A stretch of DNA of 64,000 bases, from positions 27,633-91,632 of IMG/VR virus record IMGVR_UViG_3300003316_000399. One strand, written 5' to 3'. The DNA comes from a virus (Duplodnaviria; Caudoviricetes). Position numbers and translations under genes: made by a program. Below, piece after piece: positions 20,468-62,868 of this stretch. The notes beneath the pieces were generated by a model that made no database searches, had not been told where the DNA came from, and saw only the letters and a program-made list of their open reading frames with translations. The number at the start of each line of letters is the position of its first letter. Positions within the stretch are counted from its first letter, which is position 1.

Positions 20468-23400
20468 CTAAACTTGTCTATCCCTTAATGATCTTCCTGC
20501 TTTTAATCCTTGACCACCAGTGCTTTGCGCCTTACCAACACTAGCTCCTGGTGAAACAATATTACCCGGTTTACCATTTATCATTGCTTTCGCAGCACTG
20601 CCACCTTGATTAGCTTGTCCATTTACAATTATCTGCAGGGCAATCGGAGTAGCTGCTAGTAACGCAGCGAGATCAAATTTTCCTAACGCGGCTGCCGCAG
20701 TTCCAAGAGCTGTGGAAAAACTCGATATAGATTTTACATCTAGATTTTCTTTAGCAAAAGTTGACATACGCACCGCAGCTGTTGCCGACACTTTTGCTAA
20801 CATACCGAGTTCATTGTTCGATTGATTTGCTCTCTGTCCTAAATCTTGTAAACTATTTTTAACTGGCTTGCTACTGTTAGATAAATCTTCTAACCAACCT
20901 CGTCCACCGCCACCACCGCCACCACCTGACCGTTGCGCGGCTTGCTCCCGCATTGCGATGCTTTTAGCATCTATTCGCTTTGATGTATTAACATCTCGAT
21001 AGCTATATAAATCATATTCTTCTTCAATATTTCGAGGTGGTGCTGGCATTGAAGGTCTAAGATTTTCTAAAGCTTCATCGATAAATGGTAGATCTGGCTC
21101 AGTGATAACACGACCTGGAGTTCCTGGTGTTGGGTATCCCATTGGAGCCGCACCCGGCATAATAGTATTACCAAGCGCAGCGAGATTTGGCGCCTCTTTT
21201 GTTGAACCTTGCTGACCTTGTAGAATTGCTTCTGCCAGCTGTTTAGCAAAGTCCATAGTTACCATGCCCTCTTTGCCCATTTCTGGAGATACATAGTTTA
21301 CACTACCAGTTTCTTTTCCTCCTGCATTATAATAATCCCACACGGTTGGTGCGCGGTAATTTCCTGGCAAGTTATAGTGACCGCGTAACTGATCATTGCT
21401 TTCCGTATTCTCGTCTATTGCCATGCGCAAATACTCTTGACTTAAACCTGTTTGCATAAGTAAATCGTTATTCTTGCGCATGATCAATAAGCGTTCATCA
21501 CTGTATTTCTCAGCTAAATCCGGTGCTAGATTTACAGCCTGGCTTTGTAGCTGTTGCGCGCGCTGAATAATTTTTTGTGTTTGCTCAGGAGTATATTCAG
21601 AAAGATCAACGGTTTCCGGTGCTTTCAGTTGTTGTCGTTTCTGTTGTTGCTGTTGCAAATATTCATTCACAAAACCCTGATTTATTCCAGCAACTGATTT
21701 ATAAGAATCTCCGCTGCTCATCAGAAACTGCTGTTTTGAAAACTCATTACCCCAGGCCGGAAACATACTTGTTAGATCACTTTGCTTTTGCCGTGCGTAA
21801 TCCAACGCGGCGGATAAATCCTCAGTTTTATAATCTGAAACATCAAAAATATTAGGCGCTTGGAATTGTGCCGGTGTCCCTGCGATAACAGTTGTTTTCC
21901 TTGCGTCTTTTTGTGATTTGATCAAACCTAACGATTTCATAAGTGTATCTGGCTCTTGCTTAACCATTGCCAGGTATGCACGATATTCTACAGCAAGCAT
22001 CTGCCGCGCCTGTAGCTGCTTTTGAACCGCGTCGTAACTTTGCGTTGCTTTAGTATGTTCTTCACTGGAGGTATCTATATATTCCGGCGTCTTTGCAATA
22101 GCAGTTGCCTGTTCTTGTAATGCGCTATATTCCTCCATAAAATTCTGCATCTCAACAAGTTGGGAAAGCTGTTGCTGGAACTCATTTTGACCTTCAGAGC
22201 CAATCTGATATAGCATCTTGTTCATGCCGGAAGTATCTTGACCAAGTTTTCTAGCAAGAGGATCAGCAATCGCTAATGTATTTGGCAAAGCTTCCAATGA
22301 AGATCTTGCAGTTTGGTACTGTGACATTACATCTTCAGCTGCCTGACCAGTAATACGACCTGAACTTATGTCGTTAAACTTGCTACTAAATACAGTGTTT
22401 AAACGCTGTGTTTGTCGTCCAAACGTGCCAAACTCAGTTAAGCCTGTTGGTACTTTATAGGTGTATTGTGATAACTCCCGCATATCGGACATCTTTGTTC
22501 TAATAGAATCAAGTGTTTCATTGATTCCACCAAAAATATCGCGCCCTTTTGACGTTTCTGAATTCTGACTCTGCTGCAAATCGCGTATGGCTTGCTGGAC
22601 TTGCTCTTGTTCTTTGATCTTTGCAGTAATTTCAGTATTCTCATCTTTTGCCTGCGTGAGCAGGTTAAGAAATTCTTTAGGATCTGATATACCAGAGTTC
22701 TGATAAAGTGATTTAAGATCGGGAGAACCCTCTAGCTTATTATAAAAATTCTCTACATTACCCAATGCACCAACCCGGTAATTTGCTAAGAAAAAGTTAT
22801 CTTGTATCGAGGAAGGATCACCGGCATTGGCAATCAGTCTTTCGTAATTCTTTAAATTCTCGGATGACACGGCAGTACTTGGTCCTGAAATTGGTGATTG
22901 TGAAAGAATTTCCTTTAATGCGTCGGCTTGCTCATAGACATTTTCTATACCGCCGGTTGATTTTGCCTCGGCATAAGCTGATGCGAATTTCTCTTGTTCC
23001 CGTCCACTAGTGCCCAAAAATGTTCCATATACATCAAAATACTCTGATACACCTTTACCAATCATATATCCAACTTGGGCACCAAGAGGACCTCCAACAA
23101 ATGCACCTGCAAACCCACCCGCAATACCGGCTCCAACATTCATCATATTCTCGCCACTAAAACCCCCCATTGCAACATCCATACCGATGGGTAAAGCGAG
23201 ATCTCCAAGTGTTCTACCAGTTTGTCCTAGAATTTTACCTGCTCTGGTATTCATGAAACCAGATACACCAACTGCAGTTGGTTTGTCAGTCACACCTTTT
23301 AGAAAACTGTTTACTGCACCTAATCCCTGAACATTTGCAGTAGCAATTTTACCAACCTCAGCAACCTGCATTAAATCAACACTTAATGCTTTTGCAGCTG

Positions 23401-26400
23401 AGCCCAAGACCGATAGTGATTTTGAACCAGAAGCCTCCATGCTGGTAAAAATTTGCGCCAGGGCACGTCCTGCACCTGTTGCTGGTTGTAAAATTGCACG
23501 TAAGCCTAGTGTTAACTGTGATGTAAAACTGCGCACAGTGGTTGCCGCCATATTTATTACTTTAGCTATCCCGGAAAAAGCATTCATCCCTGCCGTAAAT
23601 ACACCAAGGAATCCTATAATAACGGCTTGTAATGCTTGTTTTATCGTCTGAATAACTTGTGGATTTCCTTTTGCGGCGTCTGCAATTTCACGCATACTAT
23701 CAGCGACACGTGTTAACGCGTTGCCAATATCATCCATCAATCCACTACCGAACAAAATTTCCTGTAAAAAGAGTGCAAAAGAACCTTGTAACTTATTTAG
23801 TGCTCCGGCGAAAACTTCACTTTTTCTTTTCAGAACTACATCAAATTCCTCACCGGTCATCTTTCCGCCCTCGGATGTGGGTTGCAGGGTTTGCTGAATT
23901 CGATCTACTTCAGGAATTGATTCGATTAACTTTTTAGCCTCGTTTGCCCGCGCACGACCGCCGAATGCCTGTGTAATCTCTTTGGATTTATATGGCATGT
24001 CATTCATCAAAGTATATGAATCTTTTAAAATATCATACCAAGATCTAAATCCAATGGTACCATCCTCATTTACCTGCCGAACAGCGATTCCCAGCTTCTC
24101 TAAATCATCACGGCCCTCTCCATATGTACGTTCCATCAATGCTTTAATTGAGTTAGATGTTTCAACTGGAGATTTATTTAACTTGACCGCCGATGCAGCA
24201 GTAATTGCTAACAATCTATCTTGTGATAGACCAGCATCGCCTGCACTAGCGGCAAGCTGGGCATAAACTTGAATCAGATCACTTCCTGCAGCTCCAGATT
24301 CCCTTTGGGCAACAACTAGTTTACTCATCAAGTTATTAAGTTCACTGACCGCAGCGGCGGCTCTAGCCGATGGATCGGTAATGCTTTCATCAATAGAGTC
24401 TCTGAGTTGTGCAAAAATAGCTGGTATTGATTCTAGAGATTCTTCTAATGAAATTCCGAATACAGTCTGTGACCCTAGCTGCGTTCTTGACAACGCGTTG
24501 CTGATCTCTTGCCGTTCACGCATATCTTGAATGGGCGCTAAAACTTTGAAATTTTGTATATTGGTCTGCACACCTTCGGTGAATCCCTGACCAGTTTCCA
24601 CGGCGGTATCAATACTGTTGTATAAGAAATCCGATCCTGCTCTCTTTGTGGTACTAATATCAATTGTACCGCTTGAGCTTTCTAAGAGTGTGCCTATCTC
24701 TGCAAGCTCATCTTGCATATCAACAATTTGTCCAACTAATTCTTGTAATTTGAAGATAAGATTCTCAACGAATTCATCAGTAATTTGACGCGGTATTTCA
24801 ATTGCCACCTGTTCTAAGAATTTTGAAAGTGGATTTTCTTTTGGTGTATCAAGAACTAAATTATTAAATTCATCAATTTTTCCATTGAGTTGCACCATTG
24901 CGCCGGATGTTGTTTTTGCACTAATCGAAACGCGGTTGATCCCTTCATTAAAATCATAGACATACTCTGTATTGAAGCTTTCTCTATCCAGACCTTCACC
25001 AGATTTTTGCATCAATTTGAAATTAACTTCATCATATAAATCTAGTTGTTTGTTGGGAGATACTGCACGACCAGCCGAGTAGGCTGCCATATTTATAAAT
25101 CTGTCTTTTAAACCGCCAAACATGCCACTACGCGGCTTTGAAAAGTATTCAAAAGAAGGGCCAATGCGATCTGGTAGAATTCCAGCCACTACATTACCAA
25201 GAGACAATGGGTTCTCTGGATCAGAGATCATTGTTTTGATCTGATTTGATAATATAGCCTGCATTGCGGCTTCAGAAGCGCGTATTGCTTTCTGTTTCAT
25301 GCTGCTATTATTTGTAGAAACATTAGGATCTGGAATTCGCATTTCTTCGTAAGCGGCGGATAAAGCACTTCCTATATCCGAACCCAAGATGCTAGAAATA
25401 TACTCTGGTATATTACTAGTGAATTGATTCTTAAACGATGTGAATGATGTTTTAACTCTTTGCACCCAACTCTGTTTTGTCGTGGATTTTAAAGCCGATG
25501 GTGCTTCATTAGAAACTGGAGTGGAAGTAACGCCGGGCATCTGTGTAGATGTTTTATCACTGTTAAACGAAGGATCATAGAAAGCATATCCCTGAACCTG
25601 TGATGCAGCTCGATCCAATTCTTCACCGCTGGCGTTAATAGCAATTCCAATCGATTTATTTAGCTCCTCAACGCGTTCTCGCAATAGAACAATACCTTCT
25701 TTGCTGTACGTGTCGGGTGAGATTTCTTTAAGCGTTTTTGTAGCAATATCAAATAGCTCATTACCATATAAACGTCTAAAGAAATTTATAAATTCGGCCT
25801 TTCCTGAAATTAATGCTTGTGAAACATTTGATAAAACTTCACCGCTTTTGAAATAGTAATCTTGATCCTTAAGAGCACCGCCCAAATCCTGCATCTGATT
25901 TTGGTCAAGAATATTGCTCGCAACGCGCATTGCTTGTTGTTGATTACCAGGTGTTGTGAGATATGCACGTCTTTTAGCAATGGATTTCTCAAGATCAGTA
26001 TTTTTAAGAGCTTTATCTCCAGCTGAAAATGTTAAACCGTGTGTTAATTCGTGAATAATAATATCAGTATCATCCATGTATGTTAACGCGGTGCGATCGT
26101 CTCTATTTGTAAAGCCAAACGCTGTTTTCCGTCCGGTATTTCTATCGGTGTACGGTAACGATGCGCCACTATAGCCACCGGCTTGTTTTGCAATTTCTGG
26201 AGCAACGCCCATGCCTTCCATTGTTGATACCATTCCCGAAGATGACAAGACCGCATAACCGGAAGCCAAACCCTTCTGAAAACTTGTGCCCTCAGAAAAA
26301 TTCATAATTCCGGTTTCAATAATCTTCATGCGCTTAATATCTTCGGGAGACATTGTCTTTAACGCCTCGCGGCGCTGGTAATCTGCTAGTGGATCTCCAG

Positions 26401-28960
26401 TGCTTAAATCACCTGCGAAATCCTTGTTAATATTGGATTGCTTTGCTGTTTTTGATCCTGTTTCATACCCAGCAATATTTCTATCCAACGCGTTGAGAAT
26501 TCTTAATGCTTGTTCTTGCTGCTTCTCATTTAGAAAATCTTTATTGTTACTATACTGTTCCTGTAAAACTTCGTAACCCGCACGTGTAAGATTATTAACT
26601 TTGGTCTGTACACCTTTTGGTAAAAATGGCATTACATTGTTGTTAAGGAAGCTCACACCAGCTTCACCAAAACTAAGCATAGTATCAGCACGTCGAGCAA
26701 ATGCACCTTTATCAAAATCCTTAAATTTATTTGTTCCAAGGATTCGATCCATATTTAACACAGCGCGCCAAATATTTGTCAGTGCATAACCGATGTCAAC
26801 AAAGGTACCAGGATTAAGCTGTCTAATAGATTCATCAAAAATCTCAAGTGCGTTAACAATTGCACCAAGCTGATTTGTAGCACCTACAAATTTTGCAACG
26901 CGTTGTGCTATTTTATTGACTAGACTGTCTCCGGTATCAGATTGCTTTAAAGTTTGCTCCAATCGGCGTTTTGTTTCTTCAACACGATTCGGTGTATAGC
27001 CCTGAGTAGGAGCCTGTCCTGAACGTCTGTAACTACGCGCCGCTTCTGGAGATTCAGCACTTATGTTTGGAGTTTCATCCGATGAAAGAAATTTAGCAAA
27101 CTTTGTGACATTATTGAATAAACCTTTTGCTTTATCAACAAATGTTGAAGATGGATCTTTCACAGGACCAAGCGCTGTTTTAATAGCATTGGCAATTTTT
27201 GATGATAAACCTTCCTCATTAATATATGCTGTATTACTTGAGTTTTCATCGCCGGATTGCTCACCAATAAACGCGACTAATTTATCAAAAAATGCGCCAA
27301 GGTTCTGGTTTTGTGTAAATGATCCTACAGTATGAAGATCTTTAGCAACCTCTACTCCATTTGTTGATCTTTTAGACTCATATACACCACCCATGCCAAT
27401 AGAATCAAAAGCTGTAGGTCTAATATTTTTATTAATCTGATCAAATAGCAATCTAAAACCATCAGAAACGCGTTTTGTAAAAGCATCAATGACTCTCTGA
27501 AATCCAGAATTAATTGTATTACCAAATTGATTTATAGAGGAAAGACTATTGGCAGATATAGTATTAAAAATACTCTTACCCATATCTAATAACTTTGAAA
27601 AACTATTAGCTGGATTTATTGATGCAAACTCATCGCGTACTTTATCAGACAATCGAGTTGAAAGCGGGGCACGCATTGCTGCAGGTGAATTTTCATCATC
27701 TCCAGGATTAATGTTTCTGCCTAAACCAAGATTGATTGCATCTCGAAATCTATCATTGTTATACTCAATACCTAAATTCTGTTTAAAGTTATAGTTCAGT
27801 GTTCTAAAATCTGGTAATGATACGTTTCTGATATCAGAAGCAGCATTCGGATCTTTTGCTAATAGAGATCCAATACTTCTAAGTTGCGCGATACGATCGT
27901 TGGACAACACCTGTCCGGTTTTTTGAGATGCTTTGATGTAATCATCAACAATCTTATTTGCAATACGCCGACGCTCAATCAGCATTGTTTTTACACGTTG
28001 ATAAACTTCACTATCAACAGCAGCTGCTCGATCAATATTTTCCTGCTCAATCTGTATCTGATCAGCGGGACTAACAGCCGCAGCCTTCGGCTTTCGTGTT
28101 CTCTTGGGTTTTGGTATACTCTCCTGAACCTTTGCTTCGGGTGCCTGTTCTTCAATATCGCGGCGTATTTCCTGTGCAACCTGTTGCTCACGGGAGACAT
28201 CTGTACCAGCGGGTGTTTTTTGCTCAGGATTTGCTGGGTTTATACCTGTAATATTTAAATTTCCAGCAGCTTGCAAACGCACGAGCATTTGCTCCAATGG
28301 CTTTAGATGTGTAACAAGATCATCAATACTCTTAAAATTCTTACTGTCTATTTCAATTTTAAATGAATTAACAGCCTGTTTTAAGGTATTGATATCCTTA
28401 GCAAGTTGCTTAAAATCTGTACTGGATGCATTTGATAAAGATTTTGAGAACGATGTAAAATCATTTATAAATTTGTTAAAACCTGTATCATTCTCATTTA
28501 TATTTGGAGCACTAAAATTAGTTAATTTTTGTTTTATTGAATCTAACTCGTTACCCACGTCTTTAAGTTCATTAGCTAGTGTTGACACTTCAACACGCGT
28601 TTTCTGGAATGAGTTAGCAATGCTTTGATTTGTAGATGACAATCTTTCTAAAACACTCGCTTGGCGCTCTAGAGCGTCGGTTAGCGATGTTAAACTACCC
28701 GAATCTAATCCTTTTAATACATCGCGTAATGCGCGCATATCCTGCTGCATCTGTTGAACATTCTCAGGCTTTAATTTTCCAAGACTGATCTGTATACGGT
28801 TGATAGCATCAACAAGTTGGCTCGCGTCTTTCGCCTCGGCAACAAGAGCACTAAAACGCGAGCCAAACTTCTCAAGTCTGTCGTCAGCAGAGCTAATAAC
28901 GCCGAGGAGGTCAAGTAGAACATTTTGTATTTCAGCCACTCGATTATCAAAATCTGACAT
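20468..28960 (-). CDS. Tail tape measure protein (2830 aa) with an inserted HEXXH domain
   Basis: Very long helical protein after the tail chaperones; TP901-like core (LEKLGIAV..DG..RSWYDIL, AFGG); Gly-rich hydrophobic segment. Confidence 0.88.
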   Translation of the reverse strand: MSDFDNRVAEIQNVLLDLLGVISSADDRLEKFGSRFSALVAEAKDASQLVDAINRIQISLGKLKPENVQQMQQDMRALRDVLKGLDSGSLTSLTDALERQASVLERLSSTNQSIANSFQKTRVEVSTLANELKDVGNELDSIKQKLTNFSAPNINENDTGFNKFINDFTSFSKSLSNASSTDFKQLAKDINTLKQAVNSFKIEIDSKNFKSIDDLVTHLKPLEQMLVRLQAAGNLNITGINPANPEQKTPAGTDVSREQQVAQEIRRDIEEQAPEAKVQESIPKPKRTRKPKAAAVSPADQIQIEQENIDRAAAVDSEVYQRVKTMLIERRRIANKIVDDYIKASQKTGQVLSNDRIAQLRSIGSLLAKDPNAASDIRNVSLPDFRTLNYNFKQNLGIEYNNDRFRDAINLGLGRNINPGDDENSPAAMRAPLSTRLSDKVRDEFASINPANSFSKLLDMGKSIFNTISANSLSSINQFGNTINSGFQRVIDAFTKRVSDGFRLLFDQINKNIRPTAFDSIGMGGVYESKRSTNGVEVAKDLHTVGSFTQNQNLGAFFDKLVAFIGEQSGDENSSNTAYINEEGLSSKIANAIKTALGPVKDPSSTFVDKAKGLFNNVTKFAKFLSSDETPNISAESPEAARSYRRSGQAPTQGYTPNRVEETKRRLEQTLKQSDTGDSLVNKIAQRVAKFVGATNQLGAIVNALEIFDESIRQLNPGTFVDIGYALTNIWRAVLNMDRILGTNKFKDFDKGAFARRADTMLSFGEAGVSFLNNNVMPFLPKGVQTKVNNLTRAGYEVLQEQYSNNKDFLNEKQQEQALRILNALDRNIAGYETGSKTAKQSNINKDFAGDLSTGDPLADYQRREALKTMSPEDIKRMKIIETGIMNFSEGTSFQKGLASGYAVLSSSGMVSTMEGMGVAPEIAKQAGGYSGASLPYTDRNTGRKTAFGFTNRDDRTALTYMDDTDIIIHELTHGLTFSAGDKALKNTDLEKSIAKRRAYLTTPGNQQQAMRVASNILDQNQMQDLGGALKDQDYYFKSGEVLSNVSQALISGKAEFINFFRRLYGNELFDIATKTLKEISPDTYSKEGIVLLRERVEELNKSIGIAINASGEELDRAASQVQGYAFYDPSFNSDKTSTQMPGVTSTPVSNEAPSALKSTTKQSWVQRVKTSFTSFKNQFTSNIPEYISSILGSDIGSALSAAYEEMRIPDPNVSTNNSSMKQKAIRASEAAMQAILSNQIKTMISDPENPLSLGNVVAGILPDRIGPSFEYFSKPRSGMFGGLKDRFINMAAYSAGRAVSPNKQLDLYDEVNFKLMQKSGEGLDRESFNTEYVYDFNEGINRVSISAKTTSGAMVQLNGKIDEFNNLVLDTPKENPLSKFLEQVAIEIPRQITDEFVENLIFKLQELVGQIVDMQDELAEIGTLLESSSGTIDISTTKRAGSDFLYNSIDTAVETGQGFTEGVQTNIQNFKVLAPIQDMRERQEISNALSRTQLGSQTVFGISLEESLESIPAIFAQLRDSIDESITDPSARAAAAVSELNNLMSKLVVAQRESGAAGSDLIQVYAQLAASAGDAGLSQDRLLAITAASAVKLNKSPVETSNSIKALMERTYGEGRDDLEKLGIAVRQVNEDGTIGFRSWYDILKDSYTLMNDMPYKSKEITQAFGGRARANEAKKLIESIPEVDRIQQTLQPTSEGGKMTGEEFDVVLKRKSEVFAGALNKLQGSFALFLQEILFGSGLMDDIGNALTRVADSMREIADAAKGNPQVIQTIKQALQAVIIGFLGVFTAGMNAFSGIAKVINMAATTVRSFTSQLTLGLRAILQPATGAGRALAQIFTSMEASGSKSLSVLGSAAKALSVDLMQVAEVGKIATANVQGLGAVNSFLKGVTDKPTAVGVSGFMNTRAGKILGQTGRTLGDLALPIGMDVAMGGFSGENMMNVGAGIAGGFAGAFVGGPLGAQVGYMIGKGVSEYFDVYGTFLGTSGREQEKFASAYAEAKSTGGIENVYEQADALKEILSQSPISGPSTAVSSENLKNYERLIANAGDPSSIQDNFFLANYRVGALGNVENFYNKLEGSPDLKSLYQNSGISDPKEFLNLLTQAKDENTEITAKIKEQEQVQQAIRDLQQSQNSETSKGRDIFGGINETLDSIRTKMSDMRELSQYTYKVPTGLTEFGTFGRQTQRLNTVFSSKFNDISSGRITGQAAEDVMSQYQTARSSLEALPNTLAIADPLARKLGQDTSGMNKMLYQIGSEGQNEFQQQLSQLVEMQNFMEEYSALQEQATAIAKTPEYIDTSSEEHTKATQSYDAVQKQLQARQMLAVEYRAYLAMVKQEPDTLMKSLGLIKSQKDARKTTVIAGTPAQFQAPNIFDVSDYKTEDLSAALDYARQKQSDLTSMFPAWGNEFSKQQFLMSSGDSYKSVAGINQGFVNEYLQQQQQKRQQLKAPETVDLSEYTPEQTQKIIQRAQQLQSQAVNLAPDLAEKYSDERLLIMRKNNDLLMQTGLSQEYLRMAIDENTESNDQLRGHYNLPGNYRAPTVWDYYNAGGKETGSVNYVSPEMGKEGMVTMDFAKQLAEAILQGQQGSTKEAPNLAALGNTIMPGAAPMGYPTPGTPGRVITEPDLPFIDEALENLRPSMPAPPRNIEEEYDLYSYRDVNTSKRIDAKSIAMREQAAQRSGGGGGGGGRGWLEDLSNSSKPVKNSLQDLGQRANQSNNELGMLAKVSATAAVRMSTFAKENLDVKSISSFSTALGTAAAALGKFDLAALLAATPIALQIIVNGQANQGGSAAKAMINGKPGNIVSPGASVGKAQSTGGQGLKAGRSLRDRQV

Positions 28961-30049: not shown

Positions 30050-31294
30050 TTAAGCCGACTTTTCACCCTTATAGAAATAAATCTTATTGCTACGCGAAGC
30101 AAAGTTATAAGTTACTCGTGCGTCCTGACCAACCTGTGTATTGTTCTGCTCCTGCGTAATATCCAGTTTTGGAATCCAAATGGTCTCCTCGGGTCCAACA
30201 ACATTTCGGTCAACGCCGCGCCGGAAAACTCGGATTTCTAGACCCCAATTTGTACTGTCACCAAGATCATTCGGTGTCCAGTTATCACCATCTACATCGT
30301 TCGCGGACAACTGCTTCTGAATCTTAAAATCATGCAGCAGAAGTTCTAGAGTACCAGTGATCTCAGGAATTGAATCCATGTAACCAACAACCTCTTCTGA
30401 ACCGAGTTCATTGATACGTGTGTTGGGGAACTGACCCTGTACTGTACAAGTCTGAACACGATACACACGATCCTCAACTCCAGAAGCAGTATCTACCAGC
30501 CAAATTTCCACACCCCAACCCCGCACTCCAACCGGCTGATCAGGAAGTGGAGTTGCACCGTATGCAACATGCGGAAACTCATATGTATAATCCCACTGAT
30601 TACTCAGATCAGCATGATACATAACAGTTACAGGCGTATCGTCAGCCACGGTCTCAGTATCAAAGGTAACACTAGTAGAAGTAGACGATGTGATAGCCTC
30701 ACGTGGCAAATAGCCTAAACCACTTGCAAACGCGGAAAGGACGTATGAACCATTCTTCAGCACGCGCGCGACAGGTGATGTGAAAGTAAACAGGCCAGTC
30801 TCGTCAACCGTACCGCTCGCAACTGCCACATCATACTTTAGAAAATATCTATTGGTTGCATTAAAACTAAACTCTTCAGTGCTATCACCACCAACTGAAT
30901 AGTTTAATGAGAATCGCTCCAGCTTTGCACCAGGAACGAAAAGAGTGCCTACAATCTCGTCACTATCACGCGCGGCCTTGAAAGGCTGCTCAAGACAAAC
31001 ATAATCAATATCCTGAGCTTCAACAGAACTGCCTGACGGAACAGCAGTCCAATCTACGCCAGCTAGGGCAAACTTTGTCCTAACACCAACATCCATAGAA
31101 GAAACTGTTACAGTGACTTCAGGAAGATCAAAGATACGACCAGCAATCTGATCAGAACCAAGCTCCTGCACCGGAGTGGTAGGAAGGTTTGCACCGATCT
31201 CAGCTCGCTGTACACGACCGAGACGAGTCTTACCAAGTCCATTAATGGCGTTGATTGCAGTCTCTTTGAAATTAATTGAGACTCTTGATCCCAT
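30050..31294 (-). CDS. Major tail tube protein with tandem-duplicated tube domain
   Basis: Synteny; two homologous halves (RVQ..P.T...ELGS....G....PE.T) separated by a beta-rich insert. Confidence 0.8.
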   Translation of the reverse strand: MGSRVSINFKETAINAINGLGKTRLGRVQRAEIGANLPTTPVQELGSDQIAGRIFDLPEVTVTVSSMDVGVRTKFALAGVDWTAVPSGSSVEAQDIDYVCLEQPFKAARDSDEIVGTLFVPGAKLERFSLNYSVGGDSTEEFSFNATNRYFLKYDVAVASGTVDETGLFTFTSPVARVLKNGSYVLSAFASGLGYLPREAITSSTSTSVTFDTETVADDTPVTVMYHADLSNQWDYTYEFPHVAYGATPLPDQPVGVRGWGVEIWLVDTASGVEDRVYRVQTCTVQGQFPNTRINELGSEEVVGYMDSIPEITGTLELLLHDFKIQKQLSANDVDGDNWTPNDLGDSTNWGLEIRVFRRGVDRNVVGPEETIWIPKLDITQEQNNTQVGQDARVTYNFASRSNKIYFYKGEKSA

Positions 31295-32639: not shown

Positions 32640-32909
32640 CTATTCCTCTATAGTAAGACCAACACGCCGCTCAATTTCTCTACGAAGATCGTTATATCCA
32701 TCTAAAACAGCTTTCCGAACCTCTCGAAATATCTCGGGAGGAAGATTTAAGCTTTCTAACCGACTAAGTGTATGTTTTGTATGCTTTCCAGTTGCATGAT
32801 CTAGCATTTCTAACATATTTAGTAAGTCTGGAACGGAGTATGTTTTTGTCATAATTATTTTTTCCTCATCTCCTTTGTTAACTAACCCTATAACCTCCTG
32901 TATTTTCAA
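32640..32909 (-). CDS. Hypothetical protein
   Basis: Operon context. Confidence 0.5.
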   Translation of the reverse strand: MKIQEVIGLVNKGDEEKIIMTKTYSVPDLLNMLEMLDHATGKHTKHTLSRLESLNLPPEIFREVRKAVLDGYNDLRREIERRVGLTIEE

Positions 32910-33336
32910 TCTCTATAAGATTCAAATACACATGTGTAATTTCAGATAATCCTGAATATGCCCAATTTTTAACGCTACAAATACGATTGTCTACCTTTAC
33001 TGTAACAATTTTGTTAAGTATATCATCAATGATTGTATTAGTAGCAATGATGATACTACAATCACCATCTACAGCTTGACCCATAGGTGTATATAACTTG
33101 GTGTCACTGATAGCCCATCGTATTTCCGCATTATAGACCATTGTAGTTTCTACACGTATAACGCCATTGCCATTGCATGTTGGACAAAATGGATCAACAT
33201 CATCACCACACGTTGGACAAATTTCTTGTGATGCCTGAAGCGTTAGAAGAACTGGTCTTCCAACAGCATCAATAATCCCAGCAATAACTTCTTGTTGTAT
33301 TTTAATATCAGGCTTTTGAATTTGAATCGCGCTCAT
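32878..33336 (-). CDS. Putative head-closure protein with a Zn-ribbon
   Basis: CPTC..FCPTCNGNG; neck-gene synteny. Confidence 0.6.
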   Translation of the reverse strand: MSAIQIQKPDIKIQQEVIAGIIDAVGRPVLLTLQASQEICPTCGDDVDPFCPTCNGNGVIRVETTMVYNAEIRWAISDTKLYTPMGQAVDGDCSIIIATNTIIDDILNKIVTVKVDNRICSVKNWAYSGLSEITHVYLNLIEIENTGGYRVS

Positions 33337-34507
33337 TTATAACCGCCGTCAATAATTCTGAAAATTCATTGGCTACGTTTTTCCAAACGTAATCCTCACG
33401 GTTAACTAATTCGTAACCTTTTATACCAATCTCTTTTCGATAATTTGCATCTACATACAAAAGATTTAATGCCTGAACAAAAGCTTGTTTATCAGCAATA
33501 CCACCAATTGTGTTAATACCTCCGGGACGAACCTCAGTTGTATAACAAGGGATTGCAATACCGCCATCTGCTGCCCACTCACCCAATGCAGACCAATTTG
33601 GAAAAACCTGAGGTACCGCACAAGCCATTCCTTCCATCTGACACAAACCCCATCCCTCACCATTAGTAGTGGAGATCTGCACATCCAGCGTGCTGTAAAT
33701 AAATTTCATCTGTTCCTTACTCACGCCATTGAGAGAAGTTATTGCTGGTGAAGTAACAATTAAACGATTTTTCACGCCGTAATAATCCATAAGATCAGGA
33801 ATATCCCAACCAACATCATTTAATGAACCATGAAATAAAAACTTTACAGTCTCTGGTTTATGCTCTGCAAACTCTGCAAAGTATTCAATAGCAAGATCAA
33901 GTCTCTTTCGTGGCTGGTTTCTGTTCACTGATCCAACAATAAACAAATCTTCAGCTAAACCACCCACTTTGCGCGCAACAGCGCGCTCAACTGGGCTAAA
34001 AATAGATCGATCAAATCCGTGTGGAATAACCTGTAATTTCGTAGTCATACCTGCATTTAAAAACTGATTTTTCCCGAATTCTGTATAAGCGATAGCGACA
34101 TCAAGCCAATTAAGACCTTCTCCAAATCGACGTTGGATGTTTAATCCATCAACTGGCATATACGCGGCTTTGATTCCATCATAATTTGCTAAATCAAATG
34201 CTTCCTTATAACGGATAACAACCCATGGATCATTTACCATCAATACCGCATCTGGTTTGATGGTATGTAGTAAGCCAGGTAATCTATTAACTCCGTGCAT
34301 ATCGCCGCCGGTTAAACTTGGATAAATTGGATAATTAAATGAATGCGGATCACCTCGATAGTTAATACCAAGAATATGAATATTCCATTGTTTTGATAAA
34401 TTATCCGCAATCCCATGAACAACTGTTGCAAAACCTGTATGACCTACTGCATCCCCTACAATAAGAAGTGATGGCTTTGATGGTACTGAACGTCCCCTCA
34501 TAATCAA
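33308..34507 (-). CDS. Glycosyltransferase family 4 (GT-B) embedded in the neck gene cluster
   Basis: HTGFATV, VIPHG, NRNQPRKRLD and EGWGLCQMEGMAC (EX7E) motifs. Confidence 0.92.
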   Translation of the reverse strand: MIMRGRSVPSKPSLLIVGDAVGHTGFATVVHGIADNLSKQWNIHILGINYRGDPHSFNYPIYPSLTGGDMHGVNRLPGLLHTIKPDAVLMVNDPWVVIRYKEAFDLANYDGIKAAYMPVDGLNIQRRFGEGLNWLDVAIAYTEFGKNQFLNAGMTTKLQVIPHGFDRSIFSPVERAVARKVGGLAEDLFIVGSVNRNQPRKRLDLAIEYFAEFAEHKPETVKFLFHGSLNDVGWDIPDLMDYYGVKNRLIVTSPAITSLNGVSKEQMKFIYSTLDVQISTTNGEGWGLCQMEGMACAVPQVFPNWSALGEWAADGGIAIPCYTTEVRPGGINTIGGIADKQAFVQALNLLYVDANYRKEIGIKGYELVNREDYVWKNVANEFSELLTAVINERDSNSKA

Positions 34508-34516: not shown

Positions 34517-35137
34517 TTAAAATCGCATTACAATGTAAGGGAACGAAGACTTTGTTCCCCCTGCTAATTTGCCTTTAAAAAACGCATTGAGTTCATTAAA
34601 TGCGTTCTCATAAATTTGACTCAAAACTCTGCTCTTTTCCAAATTGGAAAATGTATAATCTCGTGTAGACCAGTGTTGAAATGATTCTGCACTGGATGTT
34701 AAAATCATTCGTTGAAGTGCTAGAACAGCGGCTAGTATTACAATATATTGATCATATTCTGAGATAACGGGCTGATCATCTGTGAATGTATGACGCGGGT
34801 TTCTTACAACATCCCCGTTATCCAATCCACTTGGAACTGAGGTGTAAGAATTATCTATTTTCACATACTCATATCCAGATGGAACAATAGTGATAACACC
34901 ATCGGTATCTGTAACATCTTCATACCAATAATAAACATTCTCAGGAAGAGGATGTATCGATGTAACAGATTGACCAGTAACATATTTCCTATCCCATCGT
35001 CGTTCCAGCATAATAATCCCAGCAATTAATGCTGTTCTAAGAATAATATCAGAAAATCTGGTCCCATCGTAATCTCCAATATGAAAGCGGAGCTGCGGAA
35101 TTAGATAATCGATATTTGTAGGATACTGTACTAACAT
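34517..35137 (-). CDS. Putative head-tail adaptor
   Basis: LRFHIGD..FSD..L pattern; synteny. Confidence 0.6.
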   Translation of the reverse strand: MLVQYPTNIDYLIPQLRFHIGDYDGTRFSDIILRTALIAGIIMLERRWDRKYVTGQSVTSIHPLPENVYYWYEDVTDTDGVITIVPSGYEYVKIDNSYTSVPSGLDNGDVVRNPRHTFTDDQPVISEYDQYIVILAAVLALQRMILTSSAESFQHWSTRDYTFSNLEKSRVLSQIYENAFNELNAFFKGKLAGGTKSSFPYIVMRF

Positions 35138-35662: not shown

Positions 35663-36274
35663 CTAAGTAATAAGCCCAAAATTCCTAGCCGCTGTCCAAA
35701 CTCTATTTAACATAGTTTGTTCATTAGAACCATACGTTGCAGCAGCTGTCAATGCTCCTCCTGTTTGTCGAGCAACCGCCGCTGCGCCTAGGAAACCAAT
35801 CATTGCTTGTGTACCGTCAGATTCTAATTGTAACACTGTTCTAGCTGCTGTATCATGAATAAAAATAGTAGATCTGGCAGCACGTGTGGAATCTGTTGCA
35901 CTGGACCATACTGTGCGTAAGGTTAACGCAGTTCTATTTGTAGTAGTGCTTGATTGTAATCTCAAAACAATATCACTACCAAAGTTTGCAGCAGGTGTTC
36001 CAGAACTTGCATTTCTATCAACCGTGAGTACAGTGGCGTTTGCGGTAGACGCGGGGGATGATTGATGAACTACGCGCATCGGTAAACTTGAAGTAACCTG
36101 CGTAGACGTTGAAATAAGTGCTGAATTACTCAAAATACCACTTGCTGTAAATACAGGTACAGAATCTACAGTTCCGCTGCCGGTTATGGCATCGCCTTGC
36201 TCTAAAAATTCGTTCGTATTTTGTTTGATGAAAATACGACCTCCGGTACTGTAAAGAATGAGACCTTTTTGCAT
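35663..36274 (-). CDS. Putative virion accessory/fibre protein (Ser/Thr/Ala-rich)
   Basis: Composition; C-terminal IGFLGAAAVARQT...RNFGLIT typical of phage fibre ends. Confidence 0.55.
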   Translation of the reverse strand: MQKGLILYSTGGRIFIKQNTNEFLEQGDAITGSGTVDSVPVFTASGILSNSALISTSTQVTSSLPMRVVHQSSPASTANATVLTVDRNASSGTPAANFGSDIVLRLQSSTTTNRTALTLRTVWSSATDSTRAARSTIFIHDTAARTVLQLESDGTQAMIGFLGAAAVARQTGGALTAAATYGSNEQTMLNRVWTAARNFGLIT

Positions 36275-36286
36275 GGTATTTTCCTT

Positions 36287-36823
36287 TTATGCAATAATTT
36301 CAATACCTGGAGTAAAACTTACAGTTACATACGTGCCACCAACATTAATAATATCACCCACTGATTGAATAAGATTGCCAGTGGATGTAGCTGGTGATTT
36401 TGTAGTACCACCAGCAGTTGTACTTAAAAATGCCTCTAATCCTACATCACTAGCCACAAATGTACCAACTGGAACTCTATCATTATCACCTGCTGTATAT
36501 ACCGTTGCAGAAGCACTTGAACTGTATGATTGCTTTACAAAACCTTCAGTGGGCTTTGTATGATCTGTTGCATTAGCTTTACGCACGGATTTTGTGCCAG
36601 ATACATCATGAAAGTTTACCCAATCACCTGCAGATAGAGCTTCACTCGCAGTGGCTGATTGAGTTTCTGGACCAATTCCTGTCGGAAAGAAAGAAACATC
36701 CAGCTTACCATTTGAATCTAAACCGGGGATTTCACCAGCGCTTCCGCCCCCGGATGATGTACTAACTGTACTCTTACGCCGCGTCTTTAGCGTGGATGGA
36801 TCGAAATCTAAATAATTTCCCAT
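36287..36823 (-). CDS. Putative capsid decoration/head-fibre protein
   Basis: ASEALSAGDWV..VRKANA..GFV pattern of cement-like domains. Confidence 0.55.
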   Translation of the reverse strand: MGNYLDFDPSTLKTRRKSTVSTSSGGGSAGEIPGLDSNGKLDVSFFPTGIGPETQSATASEALSAGDWVNFHDVSGTKSVRKANATDHTKPTEGFVKQSYSSSASATVYTAGDNDRVPVGTFVASDVGLEAFLSTTAGGTTKSPATSTGNLIQSVGDIINVGGTYVTVSFTPGIEIIA

Positions 36824-38088: not shown

Positions 38089-39069
38089 TTACGGAATATG
38101 ATACTGATATGTTGGTGATGGCACCTTAATAATACCAATATTCTCAGCGCGATCGATCATCATGCCGAACTGCTTCATAAGGTGAAGCTGATAAGCTGGA
38201 GGCTGAACAGTGGTATCGCGATGATCCCAGCTTTCAATACCATCATAGAGTAAAATCTCGCCCGCGTTGTCTCCGATGACAAGAACCTTATCATCTTCGA
38301 GCAGCGGAGTATCAAATCCACCAAGTTCGTGCTTGTAAACCTGACCGAGTTCAACAAGTGTATTACCCTTGTAACTAGTCAGGCGCCCGTTGCGGCGATA
38401 TTCCTCAAGGATAGCCTGAATACCGATAACACCGTTGGTATTCGTATTTACAACAGGAGTAACCTCCTGCACACCAGCAAAACTATACACCTTCTGAAGT
38501 GCCTGACGGGTACCGACAATTGCACGGATATTACCAGCATAACGCAGTACGGTCTCGACCATGTTATCAAGGATAGTCTCGGTTAGACCAGTGGAACTTG
38601 CATCAAAGTAATTCGTATTACTTGTAGTGCCATCCCAAATATCGGCAATCATACGATACACACGCGCTACAGTAGCATCAACAAGCTCTGCCTCAAGCTC
38701 ACTACGAATAGCGTCGATACTGCCTAACTCACCGCGTCGCAGCTCCCATTCATTCATACGCACACCAGCAATAATACTATCATACTGATACGCCATGATA
38801 TCACGCACGGCAATCTGTGAAGTACGATGCATAGTTCCAGGAACAAACGAATAAACACGATGCCCACTTCGTACACGCTTTACGTACTGTGTACCAGGGG
38901 TACCAGAACGCACGCGCAAGAAGGTATTAAAAATATCGAGTGTTAGGTGGTTAGGGTTAATTGATTCAATGACCATTTCAGCAAAAGCTCTATTCGGCGC
39001 GCCATTACGACCTTCTGGATCATAAGACATCGCAACTTCTGCTAAGGCTTTCTTTAGTTTCTCATCCAT
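38089..39069 (-). CDS. Major capsid protein (HK97-fold expected)
   Basis: 326 aa; follows protease/scaffold and decoration genes; followed by a terminator; capsid-like C-terminus (QFGMMI...IGII). Confidence 0.8.
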   Translation of the reverse strand: MDEKLKKALAEVAMSYDPEGRNGAPNRAFAEMVIESINPNHLTLDIFNTFLRVRSGTPGTQYVKRVRSGHRVYSFVPGTMHRTSQIAVRDIMAYQYDSIIAGVRMNEWELRRGELGSIDAIRSELEAELVDATVARVYRMIADIWDGTTSNTNYFDASSTGLTETILDNMVETVLRYAGNIRAIVGTRQALQKVYSFAGVQEVTPVVNTNTNGVIGIQAILEEYRRNGRLTSYKGNTLVELGQVYKHELGGFDTPLLEDDKVLVIGDNAGEILLYDGIESWDHRDTTVQPPAYQLHLMKQFGMMIDRAENIGIIKVPSPTYQYHIP

Positions 39070-43514: not shown

Positions 43515-43691
43515 ATGGTAGAAATACTTACTGGATTTAAAGCAGTACAGTATCTTATGCTGGAAGCAGATAATCTAGAATTAACACATATTGTTAATCT
43601 GGTTCTAGATATTCTAGAAGTATATGGCGATGAATTCAACGCGGCTTTGGTTTATTTTCTCAGTAGGGAATTAGATATTGAAATTATATGA
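43515..43691 (+). CDS. Small hypothetical protein, 58 aa (not in the ORF track)
   Basis: RBS GAGG; MVEILTGFK...DIEII; ATGA overlap with the kinase. Confidence 0.55.
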   Translation: MVEILTGFKAVQYLMLEADNLELTHIVNLVLDILEVYGDEFNAALVYFLSRELDIEII

Positions 43692-44236
43692 CAGATCGCG
43701 TTTTAAAACCCATTGTTATTTGTTTAATGGGACCATCCGGTAGTGGTAAAAGTCTTGCAGCGTCAATGATAGCGGCTTATTTTGATTATTATATTATTCA
43801 ATCTTACACCGATAGACCAAAACGACAACCCGATGAGTTAGGTCATATATTTTTAACTGCAGAGGAATATGACAATCTTATTGAACATAATATACCAATT
43901 GCTAGAACAGAATTTGGTAATTATCGATATTGTTGTTTACAAAATGATATTAGAGATAAAACGGTTTATGTCATTGACCCAAAAGCATTTGATCATATGA
44001 AATCAATGTTTGGTAATGATTATCATTTTATAAGTGTTTATATACATGCGAGACCGGCGCAAATTTTACAAAGAATACCATTAAATAGATCAAAACGTGA
44101 TGATGGACACTTTGAATTTTCACCAAATTATTATGATTATATTATAAACAATGTCTACAATCGTGATGAATTATTCACACAGATCCAATGGATGATTAGA
44201 GATATAGAGGAGATTTATAATGTTAGCAGTTCGTAA
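43688..44236 (+). CDS. Guanylate-kinase-like NMP kinase
   Basis: GPSGSGKS, SYTDRPKR..E..H.F, GNYRY, VIDP. Confidence 0.85.
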   Translation: MTDRVLKPIVICLMGPSGSGKSLAASMIAAYFDYYIIQSYTDRPKRQPDELGHIFLTAEEYDNLIEHNIPIARTEFGNYRYCCLQNDIRDKTVYVIDPKAFDHMKSMFGNDYHFISVYIHARPAQILQRIPLNRSKRDDGHFEFSPNYYDYIINNVYNRDELFTQIQWMIRDIEEIYNVSSS

Positions 44237-44912
44237 AGGGACATGTGATGAGAATGTTTATAAATCAGTTGTCGAACATAATGAATATAAACTTCCTACT
44301 AGATTTAGACCACAGGATATTATTATTGACATTGGTGCCCATATAGGAAGCTTCTCACTTGCATGCTGGCTACGCGGTTCTCGTAATATATTGGCGTTTG
44401 AGCCAAATAAGGAAAATTATGAATTAGCGTCATTAAATCTTAAAAAGGCAATTGACCATAACAATGTTTTGCTGTATAATTGGGGTATTTGGAGATCGGA
44501 TAAAGACGCAACTAAAATGTTCCATCAAGGATACACAAAGGTTAATGAGGATGATGAACTTAATACCGGTGGTGGGAATATATTTGCCGAACGCGGTGAA
44601 GAGGTTTGGGTCGAACCATTTGATGATATTTTAAAAGAGATAGGCACAGATGTAGAACTCCTAAAGTTGGATTGTGAGGGCAGTGAATTTCCCATTCTAT
44701 ATACAAGTCAGGAAATACGACGTGTGAGAAACATTGTTATGGAATGGCATGAATTGGGAGCTTTGCAAAACAAACTATTTCCCGACATACAACGCGATTG
44801 CACTGTCGATGGTTTAATTAACTATTTAAATGACAATGGATTTGAAATCATGGAATATTTTAGACATGGAAATACAAATCTTGGAATGTTATGGGCAACA
44901 AGAAAGGATTAA
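44220..44912 (+). CDS. FkbM-family methyltransferase
   Basis: IIDIGAHIGSFS, AFEP, LLKLDCEGSE, MEWH. Confidence 0.9.
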   Translation: MLAVRKGTCDENVYKSVVEHNEYKLPTRFRPQDIIIDIGAHIGSFSLACWLRGSRNILAFEPNKENYELASLNLKKAIDHNNVLLYNWGIWRSDKDATKMFHQGYTKVNEDDELNTGGGNIFAERGEEVWVEPFDDILKEIGTDVELLKLDCEGSEFPILYTSQEIRRVRNIVMEWHELGALQNKLFPDIQRDCTVDGLINYLNDNGFEIMEYFRHGNTNLGMLWATRKD

Positions 44913-59348: not shown

Positions 59349-59656
59349 ATGGGTGCAGGCAGCCCCGCCTGCGCACACCGGCACCGAACTGGCACCCACG
59401 CCAGTGACGACCAAAGCTACGGCGCCCGCCGAGTCCACTGGACCTGCGCATTAGCGCATACGTGATGAGCACTTTAACAATCGAATAACGAAAGCGGATT
59501 ACTCCTTGCTGCGCGTATCCCCGCGTGCAGTTTTACCGCCTAGCCGGGTATCCTCGCCCGGGCTGGGTTGAGTGCCCGCCGGAGCCTAGCCCTCAAGATC
59601 TCCTGGTGGCTAAATCTGGCCCATTCCGTATACGCTTCTCACATTAAGGAGTAGTT

Positions 59657-61027: not shown

Positions 61028-61046
61028 TCTATACTCGGTGTGTCGG

Positions 61047-61074
61047 GCACAGCGTTCAGCACAGCGTTCAGCAC
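61047..61074. repeat. 12-bp tandem repeat (GCACAGCGTTCA x2.3)
   Basis: Read directly. Confidence 0.8.
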
Positions 61075-62853: not shown

Positions 62854-62868
62854 CACACACACATTCAC

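Follow-up and report, generated by a model that had tools for sequence, protein, structure and literature searches.

What does a glycosyltransferase do in the middle of the genes that build a phage neck? This question is raised by the window, a stretch of 64,000 nucleotides from the record of an uncultured, long-tailed Caudoviricetes phage (IMGVR_UViG_3300003316_000399, positions 27,633 to 91,632), where a glycosyltransferase of family GT4 is encoded in the late morphogenesis operon in the gene order adaptor, GT4, stopper:

34517-35137, (-) strand, head-to-tail adaptor, family w206 (AF2 model and Foldseek)
33308-34507, (-) strand, GT4 (GT-B) glycosyltransferase of the B736L-like viral subfamily (PF00534, phrog_2170, family profile)
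32878-33336, (-) strand, stopper or head-closure protein, family w152 (AF2 model and Foldseek)

Family profiles of the adaptor and the stopper gave no significant match to PDB sequences, and fold searches were therefore needed for both. The top Foldseek matches of the adaptor model (pLDDT 73) are nearly all phage adaptors, including those of KHP30, VP1, A4, P1, SU10 and KP32 and gp11 of T7, each match being weak (best E 2e-3). An insertion of about 40 aa in the adaptor bears the motifs VPSGY and VPSGL. The adaptor family (17 members) precedes GT4 in the first locus set and again in the tube-centred set. The stopper model (pLDDT 85) matched the stoppers of phages 812 and T1, SPP1 gp16, and the neck proteins of Pam3 and SaPI1 with a Foldseek probability of about 1.0 (E 1e-3 to 1e-2), and the protein has a CxxC...CPxC zinc ribbon with invariant cysteines. 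The genes around GT4 are tightly packed and co-directional, and promoter- and terminator-like matches in this operon were no commoner than in shuffled sequence. The stopper gene shares 29 nt with the end of the GT4 gene, at the GT4 stop, which suggests translational coupling of GT4 to the stopper gene. Both the fold matches and this overlap bear out an earlier note on this DNA, which had placed GT4 between a head-tail adaptor and a head-closure gene and overlapping the latter.

The same note had described the enzyme as complete, and the profile matches agree with this. The Pfam domain PF00534 (Glycos_transf_1) was found at 33.5 bits, above the gathering cut-off of 26.4, and phrog_2170 covers the protein over its full length (8e-39, PHROG). 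Translation probably begins with the ATG at 34501, which is preceded by an AAGGAG ribosome-binding site and gives a protein of 397 aa. The closest solved relative is the chlorovirus protein B736L (3oy2), which the GT4 family profile matched in the PDB at 3e-40 over the full length, compared with 1e-11 for the best bacterial GT4; a single-sequence search found B736L at 3e-18, residues 14-390 being aligned to 3-391. The EX7E motif is intact (local sequence GEGWGLCQMEG), with E284 and E292 invariant across 33 sequences, and R196 and K201 are likewise invariant in the family alignment. A search for a hydrophobic segment in the protein found none. GT4 is a family of retaining glycosyltransferases, and the product of 33308-34507 is, judged by its sequence, a soluble member of it with an intact active-site motif.

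The position of the gene is not peculiar to this phage. In 61 related viral contigs, compared as loci centred on the tube gene (tube protein identities 25-66%), GT4 immediately precedes the stopper gene in 59. GT4 is thus a core gene of the lineage, fixed in its neck module. The tube protein was found in at least 145 IMG/VR contigs, and the GT4 family in at least 548. In two relatives (L089 and L092), the EX7E motif of GT4 is interrupted by inteins, which implies that the activity of the enzyme is maintained by selection. A tblastn search with the capsid-like, tube and GT2-like proteins against cultured phages gave no match, so the lineage is one without a cultured member. Members of the GT4 family also occur in structural modules of independent lineages: in lineage B, the gene is accompanied by one for a sugar aminotransferase and stands between those of the Ad1 adaptor and the major tail protein; in phage S-CBS4, it lies between portal and protease; and in phage phiPsal1, between capsid and neck. 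The structural proteins of these lineages did not cluster together.

Two further genes of the window may act together with GT4:

10160-10858, (-) strand, GT-A/GT2-like glycosyltransferase in the replication module (phrog_29879 at 1e-10, family profile)
44220-44912, (+) strand, FkbM-family SAM methyltransferase, an accessory partner (PF05050)

The first had been called a GT2. It is GT-A/GT2-like by phrog_29879, which PHROG names 'galactosyl transferase', and by its family profile, which matched the solved GT-A/GT2 enzymes chondroitin synthase (2e-7), 6p61 (3e-6) and SpsA (5e-4), but no Pfam Glycos_transf_2 match was found for it, either with hmmscan or when the whole record was searched. Its residues D100, D158 and D160 are invariant, an Asp is conserved in the DxD position, and an FDE..Y.ED.D..R block is present. 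The FkbM methyltransferase, also named earlier, was recovered with PF05050 at 5e-15 (56.4 bits, gathering cut-off 22.7).

In this phage, both genes lie outside the structural operon. In relatives, they are found close to GT4. The GT2-like gene adjoins GT4 in three loci (L110, L112 and L050) and lies within one or two genes of it in four others (L035, L038, L058 and L092); FkbM homologues adjoin GT4 in L006 and L035, an FkbM-domain gene is present in the neck island of L110, and all three genes are contiguous in L035 and L110. The complete relative G002 has the GT2-like gene and no FkbM gene. Fusions of the types GT4-FkbM (P0116, for example), GT4-GT2 and GT4-Methyltransf_24 were found, and the insertions between adaptor and GT4 in relatives comprise an NDP-sugar-type C-methyltransferase, FkbM, Methyltransf_24, the GT2-like gene, an extra GT1 and a sulfotransferase. 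The S-CBS4 protein gp015 is homologous to the GT2-like protein. Nucleotide-sugar synthesis genes were not found in the record, and the sugar donor would therefore come from the host. This comparative context lends support, short of proof, to the earlier proposal of a single, possibly methylating glycan pathway that comprises GT4, the GT2-like enzyme and FkbM and is linked to morphogenesis.

The best reading, in our judgement a little better than an even bet, is that GT4 with its partners glycosylates the virion of the phage itself. We favour it by analogy, because the triad of GT4, GT2 and methyltransferase in the head-neck modules of S-CBS4 and phiPsal1 mirrors the cassette of mycobacteriophage Corndog. 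Moreover, GT4 is intact and kept between neck genes in nearly all relatives, which makes glycosylation of the particle probable. The enzyme would act in the cytoplasm during late infection and would cooperate with the GT-A/GT2-like enzyme and, in this phage, with the FkbM methyltransferase. Together they might build a short, possibly methylated glycan on at least one virion protein, added before or during assembly, as is done by the Corndog-type O-methyltransferase/glycosyltransferase cassettes of mycobacteriophages. GDP-mannose is a candidate donor, a lead taken from B736L, and the candidate benefits of the glycan are shielding, stability or adhesion.

Several observations speak against a virion target. 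Lipid-linked or small molecules are common acceptors of GT4 enzymes. In this phage, the genes for the GT2-like enzyme and FkbM stand apart from the structural operon, the enzymes have no detectable sequence similarity to those of mycobacteriophages, Ser/Thr-rich C-terminal tails are missing from the capsid-like and tube proteins, and the record contains no genes for nucleotide-sugar synthesis. In addition, the acceptor of B736L is unknown, and the capsid glycans of chlorovirus NY-2A are without mannose (PMC9614988).

Instead of virion proteins, GT4 and its partners could modify a host envelope glycan or a lipid-linked precursor late in infection, for example by masking the receptor against trapping of progeny on debris or by excluding superinfecting phages. 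Many GT4 enzymes are peripheral membrane enzymes that act on lipid-linked acceptors and have no transmembrane segments of their own, with which the lack of a hydrophobic segment in the window GT4 is compatible. Homologues of GT4 carry the source names 'cell wall biosynthesis' or 'D-inositol-3-phosphate glycosyltransferase', and phage glycosyltransferases altering host surfaces are already known (reviewed in PMC12619734, PMC10955285). However, modification of the envelope hardly explains why the adaptor-GT4-stopper position is fixed in 59 of the 61 loci, or why GT4 has been inserted into the structural modules of lineages whose structural proteins did not cluster. A Gtr-type flippase or membrane partner was not found among the annotated proteins, nor was there any sign of an integrase or a lysogeny module. 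We consider the host envelope an unlikely target.

It is also conceivable, albeit quite improbable, that the position of GT4 reflects timing and not target, the enzyme having as its substrate a small molecule or a protein, of phage or host, that is not part of the virion, or GT4 serving as a neck assembly chaperone. GT4 is a core gene whose overlap points to coupling with the stopper gene; B736L, its closest solved relative, has no known acceptor (PMC9614988), and the glycosyltransferases of Corndog were not found in virions (PMC4351075), so gene position does not imply structural incorporation. A chaperone is at odds with the invariant catalytic motif and with the inteins located at it, which point to enzymatic activity, and the glycan-tailoring partners point to an elaborated glycan product.

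If the virion is the target, as we prefer to think, the acceptor has to be sought among the structural proteins:

16292-20011, (-) strand, tail tip protein, 1239 aa (phrog_1887 tail protein)
20468-28960, (-) strand, tape measure protein, 2830 aa (size and position)
30050-31294, (-) strand, candidate tail tube protein, 414 aa (position upstream of chaperone-like genes and tape measure)
35663-36823, (-) strand, two small Ser/Thr-rich proteins, 203 and 178 aa (composition, about 26% S+T)
38089-39069, (-) strand, probable major capsid protein (weak SU10_MCP match, PHROG matches, conserved position in lineage synteny)
54271-57600, (+) strand, fibre-like protein, 1109 aa, between portal and lysin genes (extreme SG excess)

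The earlier note had listed [P/A/T/V]-Ser-Gly motifs in such proteins and had proposed them as the acceptor sequon for an O-glycan coat on tube, neck and fibres. All of the listed motifs exist, but a strong excess relative to shuffling was found only in the two giant proteins. The 1239-aa tail tip protein, which ends in ...TPSGILPVAPSGL, has 15 [PATV]SG motifs against 2.8 expected, and the 1109-aa protein has 29 SG against 9.6 expected (both p<5e-4, shuffling) and 6 GS, the Ser of SG being mostly AGY-encoded. Internal repeats as a source of the latter excess were rejected, as no repeats are present, and a generic beta-turn cause was rejected, as NG and TG are not raised. The tube, adaptor and terminator carry two to four [PATV]SG motifs each (uncorrected p 0.01-0.03, shuffling); the tube has four, together with a TSSTSTSVT patch. 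The capsid-like protein has neither a [PATV]SG motif nor an SG excess. The SG content of the tape measure is near expectation; proteins of 2894-2958 aa hold the same position in L086 and L087.

Since GT4 is nearly universal within the lineage, six GT-less model siphophages (lambda, SPP1, HK97, T1, L5 and TP901-1) were used as the control. Their observed-to-expected SG ratios are 1.47 for tube, 1.73 for neck, 1.50 for head, 1.16 for tape measure and 1.21 for tip proteins, compared with 1.53, 2.11, 1.42, 1.37 and 2.32, respectively, in the window. A clear rise above this baseline is confined to the two giant tail/fibre proteins; in all other classes, the tube, neck and head proteins included, phages without glycosyltransferases show the same excess, an outcome that the earlier note had itself named as refuting. 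In alignments of tube, adaptor and tail-tip proteins, the motif serines are replaced in GT4-carrying homologues by A, G, L, D or N (the first PSG of the adaptor is PAG in L005 and L042), and only about 2-4 of the 18 SG sites of the 1239-aa protein are kept in homologues that are 41-42% identical to it. Those homologues show an SG excess of their own, and the lineage-wide SG ratios are 1.6-1.9 in tubes and fibres against about 1.0 in tape measures, both of which speak for a sequon. However, GT-less siphophages reach 1.2-1.7 in the same protein classes, SG exceeds GS also in enzymes of the first locus set, such as the GT4 family and an aminotransferase, and the AGY codon bias together with the depletion of NG suggests turn chemistry instead. 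Enzymes with known Ser-Gly recognition, of GT14 type or otherwise, were not found. The SG excess in tail proteins is general to siphophages and is not to be read as a sequon, a reading that we regard as improbable.

There is an outside chance that an essential morphogenetic GT4 glycosylates tail/fibre (or neck) proteins at fast-shifting, turn-type x-Ser-Gly-hydrophobic sites, producing a glycan shield comparable with the shifting sequons of animal-virus glycoproteins. If so, this would be the first acceptor class for the chlorovirus B736L/A546L family. The 203- and 178-aa Ser/Thr-rich proteins, encoded between the capsid-like gene and the adaptor gene, are alternative acceptor candidates by composition; the 178-aa protein matches phrog_4368.

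Glycosylation of phage DNA, as a base hypermodification against restriction, is the least probable function: the GT-B fold is common to DNA glucosyltransferases (HHpred table, PMC6024577), the replication module houses the GT2-like gene, which is flanked by phosphatase-like and RusA-like genes and near a DNA methyltransferase, and nucleotide metabolism is represented in the genome by ThyX, dUTPase, a kinase and RNR, but GT4 is locked in the neck module and not in the replication module, the GT2-like gene adjoins GT4 in other relatives, the partners found in relatives (sugar C-methyltransferase, sulfotransferase, several glycosyltransferases) resemble glycan tailoring, and a ThyA-type hydroxymethylase and TET/JBP were not detected in the 91.6-kb record (53% complete by CheckV), the TET/JBP control being equally empty.

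New in these data are a GT4 that is core to a lineage, its kinship with B736L, the inteins in EX7E, the insertions of tailoring genes and the GT4 fusions. To our knowledge, a few mycobacteriophages are the only phages for which virion glycosylation by phage-encoded enzymes has been demonstrated, and here a GT4 family distinct from their enzymes is fixed in the neck module of a large environmental phage lineage. The triad of GT4, GT2 and methyltransferase recurs in the head-neck modules of an isolated cyanophage, S-CBS4, and of a deposited actinophage genome, phiPsal1. If the virion is the target, phage particles with a sugar coat are probably widespread in nature, with consequences for adsorption, particle stability and immune recognition, and the phages would open a way to the acceptor of the B736L/A546L enzymes of chloroviruses.

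Among mycobacteriophages, virion glycosylation is also known in Che8 and Myrna, and in mycobacteriophages the glycans are attached to Ser/Thr-rich C-terminal tails of capsid and tail tube subunits. Such tails are absent from the capsid-like and tube proteins of the window, and when 50,697 phage records were searched by tblastn with GT4, the GT2-like protein and FkbM, no mycobacteriophage was matched. In Corndog, gp35-38 (an O-methyltransferase, two glycosyltransferases and a GlcNAc-transferase) are encoded between portal and protease (PMC4351075), and the cassette modifies capsid and tail tube according to Freeman 2023, as cited in PMC11600133 and PMC12619734. Both systems combine soluble phage glycosyltransferases with a methyltransferase; the Corndog set lies in the siphophage structural operon, whereas here only GT4 does, placed between adaptor and stopper and core to the lineage, with its partners dispersed in this genome and adjacent or fused to GT4 in relatives. 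For the present phage, such a modification is predicted from the genes.

In eukaryotic proteoglycans, xylose is added at Ser-Gly. This shares only the dipeptide with the window, where the serines are poorly conserved and a search for enzymes of this kind found none. The alpha- and beta-gt of T4, which glycosylate 5hmC, share the GT-B fold class with GT4 (PMC6024577) and differ from it in that GT4 lies in a neck operon with glycan-tailoring partners and no hydroxymethylase was found. Chlorovirus B736L of NY-2A and A546L of PBCV-1 (PDB 3OY2, 3OY7) are, like the window enzyme, virus-encoded GT4 proteins of the GT-B fold; unlike it, B736L belongs to a eukaryotic giant virus and is not linked to a neck operon. 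B736L binds GDP-mannose best (PMC9614988).

Homologous GT4 proteins (24-36% identity) are encoded by Synechococcus phage S-CBS4, Pontimonas phage phiPsal1, explicitly left undiscussed in its paper (PMC6106888), and Tetrasphaera phage TJE1. The matches in TJE1 and S-CBS4 are near full length, and that in phiPsal1 covers 60% of the query. The TJE1 gene lies among nucleotide-sugar genes upstream of the terminase and not in a head or neck slot. In contrast, S-CBS4 gp014-016 and phiPsal1 gp010-012 form head or neck cassettes. The methyltransferase classes differ, that of S-CBS4 not being homologous to the window FkbM, and the cassette genes, dispersed in the present phage, are contiguous in S-CBS4 and phiPsal1.

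The glycosyltransferase gene (GT4) located between the adaptor and stopper genes is fixed in the neck module of its lineage, and this comparative context is the main new result of the analysis. Its identification in the earlier note was right: the product matches Glycos_transf_1 above the gathering score and phrog_2170 over the full length (8e-39). The gene probably starts with the ATG at 34501 behind AAGGAG, which gives a protein of 397 aa identical to the database entry P0001, and it shares 29 nt with the gene that follows. The adaptor and stopper genes next to it matched no family in Pfam and PHROG searches; therefore, their proteins were modelled from family alignments. For the 206-aa upstream protein (pLDDT 73), the top Foldseek matches are nearly all phage head-to-tail adaptors, each of them weak, and the downstream protein, with a zinc ribbon (152 aa, pLDDT 85), finds stopper/head-closure proteins, among them the phage 812 and T1 stoppers and SPP1 gp16. 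Based on these matches, the previously proposed order of adaptor, GT4, and head closure holds. In the stopper (32878-33336, minus strand; family A7), the zinc ribbon, CxxC...CPxC, is invariant. Between 29 and 43.5 kb, promoter-like and terminator-like matches do not outnumber those in shuffled sequence; perfect-consensus promoters occur only as a divergent pair at 42.6-43.0 kb.

The GT4 family gave 1465 hits below 1e-10, and at least 548 IMG/VR contigs carry its relatives. About 14 of the first 80 GT4-related loci have the same structural genes in the same order as the window phage, namely TerL, portal, w351, c25, capsid-like protein, c26, adaptor, GT4, stopper, c11, c22, c20, and tube. A further scan, this time for loci around the tube protein, revealed at least 145 relatives; 80 loci were kept, 61 of them with room for GT4. 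In 59 of these 61 loci, with tube identities of 25-66%, GT4 immediately precedes the stopper gene, so that, judged by gene order, it belongs to the core of the neck module and is not a sporadic accessory. The only locus of the lineage without GT4 upstream of the stopper gene (L126:3-1754) has a 583-aa ORF with an open 5' end there; this ORF has no Pfam match and may replace GT4.

In two related loci, GT4 is interrupted by inteins; a further intein and a sulfotransferase gene were also found in these loci:
L089:5491-7959 and L092:5659-7845, GT4 inteins with LAGLIDADG or HINT domains, inside the EX7E motif
L092:327-2669, intein in a sugar C-methyltransferase
L089:4731-5471, Sulfotransfer_1-family sulfotransferase (3e-23), beside glycosyltransferases in the neck module

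The position of the GT4 inteins exactly inside EX7E (GEGWGL|C...) implies, at the level of sequence, selection keeping the spliced enzyme active. To our knowledge, inteins have not been described in glycosyltransferases before.

The window is the final 64 kb of a 91.6-kb record, classified as a provirus in IMG/VR, with a CheckV completeness of 53%. Bases 1 to ~59,400 are phage DNA with a GC content of ~39%, in which a long co-directional array on the minus strand runs downwards from ~42.6 kb. The gene layout is as follows:
Minus strand, first gene of the array, dUTPase
Minus strand, after dUTPase, candidate scaffold/protease gene and then a decoration-like gene, both named from position only
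38089-39069, minus strand, capsid-like protein, followed by small head and neck genes and then GT4
30050-31294, minus strand, tube, after GT4 and before chaperone-like genes
Minus strand, after the chaperone-like genes, tape measure (2830 aa), and next the 1239-aa tail protein
After the tail protein, replication module with primase, DnaB, phosphatase-like, GT2-like, RusA-like, DNA methyltransferase, PolA, RecA, and PD-(D/E)XK nuclease genes
Plus strand, guanylate-kinase-like gene, FkbM, class II RNR, ThyX, DNA methyltransferase, intein-containing 860-aa protein, portal, 1109-aa protein, and amidase
50144-52726, plus strand, the 860-aa protein, directly upstream of the portal, its intein with a LAGLIDADG domain
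54271-57600, plus strand, the 1109-aa fibre-like protein, between portal and lysin

The interrupted 860-aa protein has no terminase match in PHROG; it clusters with the portal-preceding gene of relatives and is probably TerL. In the last 4.5 kb of the window (59400-64000), at the record end, GC content rises abruptly from ~39% to ~59%. The sole ORF scanned in this segment (59657-61027) matched no Pfam or PHROG family. It may be host DNA flanking the "provirus", foreign DNA, or the product of a chimeric join; a phage and its host would not usually differ by 20 points of GC.

With a profile made from 33 GT4 homologues, the match to the chlorovirus NY-2A protein B736L (3oy2) spans the full length (3e-40), and the best match to a bacterial GT4 has 1e-11; as a single sequence, the window GT4 matches B736L at 3e-18. 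B736L belongs to the GT-B/GT4 enzymes; its best-bound ligand is GDP-mannose, and no acceptor is known for it (PMC9614988). The invariant residues of GT4 include E284 and E292 (EX7E) as well as R196 and K201. The identification of FkbM (44220-44912, plus strand) is solid (PF05050, 5e-15). As for the gene called GT2 earlier (10160-10858, minus strand), it has no Pfam GT2 match; however, its family profile leads to GT-A/GT2 structures, and the family keeps an invariant Asp and the FDE..Y.ED.D..R block. Since no hydrophobic segments were found in the GT4, GT2-like, and FkbM proteins, all three are probably cytoplasmic. Nucleotide-sugar synthesis genes were not found in the 91.6-kb record; therefore, sugar donors would come from the host. 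The guanylate-kinase-like gene (43688-44236, plus strand) overlaps the FkbM start, and the guanylate kinase of Tetrasphaera phage TJE1 sits among nucleotidyltransferase, epimerase, methyltransferase, and GT4 genes; the window gene may contribute to GDP-sugar supply or may simply belong to nucleotide metabolism.

In relatives, glycan-tailoring genes accumulate between adaptor and GT4. This interval contains an NDP-sugar-type C-methyltransferase (Methyltransf_13/23/14), FkbM, Methyltransf_24, and a GT2-like gene in L110, and an extra GT1-type gene with the sulfotransferase in L089, hinting at sulfated glycans in some members of the lineage. GT2-like, FkbM, and GT4 lie side by side in L035, FkbM adjoins GT4 in L006, and natural fusions of GT4 with GT2, FkbM, or Methyltransf_24 domains exist in the family. 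The complete close relative G002 (105.9 kb) has the GT2-like gene, and FkbM was not found in it. From this distribution, GT4 appears as the core gene, the GT2-like gene as a frequent partner, and FkbM as an accessory. The same GT4 family occurs in structural modules of lineages whose structural proteins do not cluster with those of the window phage. In lineage B, one to three GT4 copies in tandem, together with a sugar aminotransferase gene, separate the Ad1 adaptor from the major tail protein, and in lineage C GT4 adjoins TerL and portal. Synechococcus phage S-CBS4 carries GT4, GT2-like, and SAM methyltransferase genes between portal and protease, Pontimonas phage phiPsal1 carries GT4, methyltransferase, and GT2 genes between capsid and neck protein, and TJE1 has GT4 with nucleotidyltransferase, epimerase, and methyltransferase genes upstream of the terminase.

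The earlier note interpreted GT4, GT2, and FkbM of the window as a candidate virion glycosylation system acting on Ser-Gly (SG) sites. Given the lineage context, virion glycosylation by GT4 is plausible and somewhat favoured. Modification of the host envelope is unlikely, because for that role a constant place between adaptor and stopper in many lineages would be hard to explain. Glycosylation of DNA is highly improbable: both the location in the neck module and the presence of glycan-tailoring partners speak against it, no ThyA-type hydroxymethylase was found in the 91.6-kb record, which may be incomplete, and no TET/JBP was detected there, although the TET control also matched nothing.

The SG part of the interpretation fared worse. 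In the phage genome, structural proteins contain 110 SG (61 expected) and 55 GS dipeptides, and non-structural proteins contain 72 SG (67 expected) and 67 GS; NG and TG are not elevated. The SG excess is indeed strong in the 1239-aa tail protein (15 [PATV]SG, 2.8 expected) and in the 1109-aa protein (29 SG, 9.6 expected; 6 GS), whereas the other classes are close to the level of phages without glycosyltransferases. In six model siphophages (lambda, SPP1, HK97, T1, L5, and TP901-1) with no glycosyltransferase annotated in the regions compared, the observed/expected ratio (O/E) of SG is 1.47 for tube, 1.73 for neck, 1.50 for head, 1.16 for tape measure, and 1.21 for tip/fibre proteins. The same excess thus exists without these enzymes in every class but tip/fibre. 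The window values for tube (1.53), head (1.42), tape measure (1.37), and neck (2.11) are at or near this baseline, and only tip/fibre proteins are above it (2.32; [PATV]SG 26 vs. 5.6). Across the lineage, SG O/E is 1.87 in tubes, 1.64 in later large tail proteins, 0.98 in tape measures, and 3.9 in the stopper; in the 69 stopper homologues (GS O/E 0.33), the excess is due to conserved SG positions flanking the zinc ribbon.

The serines themselves are not conserved. At the first tube site, homologues have P-x-[S/A/G/L]-G, with invariant Pro and Gly; the second site reads [S/T]-G, relatives have D-G at the third, and no motif aligns with the fourth. VPSGY of the adaptor corresponds to PAGY in L005 and L042, and only ~2-4 of 18 SG sites of the tail protein are kept at 41-42% identity, in homologues with an SG excess of their own. 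SG also exceeds GS in enzymes of the first set of loci (GT4 family, an aminotransferase). Given the baseline in phages without glycosyltransferases, the unconserved serines, and the enzymes with SG above GS, the [P/A/T/V]-S-G sequon is not supported, and SG is unlikely to be an acceptor, with the giant fibre proteins as a possible exception. In the 1109-aa protein, where no internal repeats were found, 20 of the 29 SG serines are AGY-coded, compared with 21 of 64 other serines, and NG is depleted, which would fit a replacement of deamidation-prone NG turns by SG.

[quoted passage not shown] For actinophages and archaeal viruses, virion glycosylation is routinely inferred from modules combining glycosyltransferases and methyltransferases (PMC13313380, PMC13700489). 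The window locus would probably work like these systems, but its enzymes are not homologous to theirs at the sequence level, and its capsid-like and tube proteins are without Ser/Thr-rich C-terminal tails.
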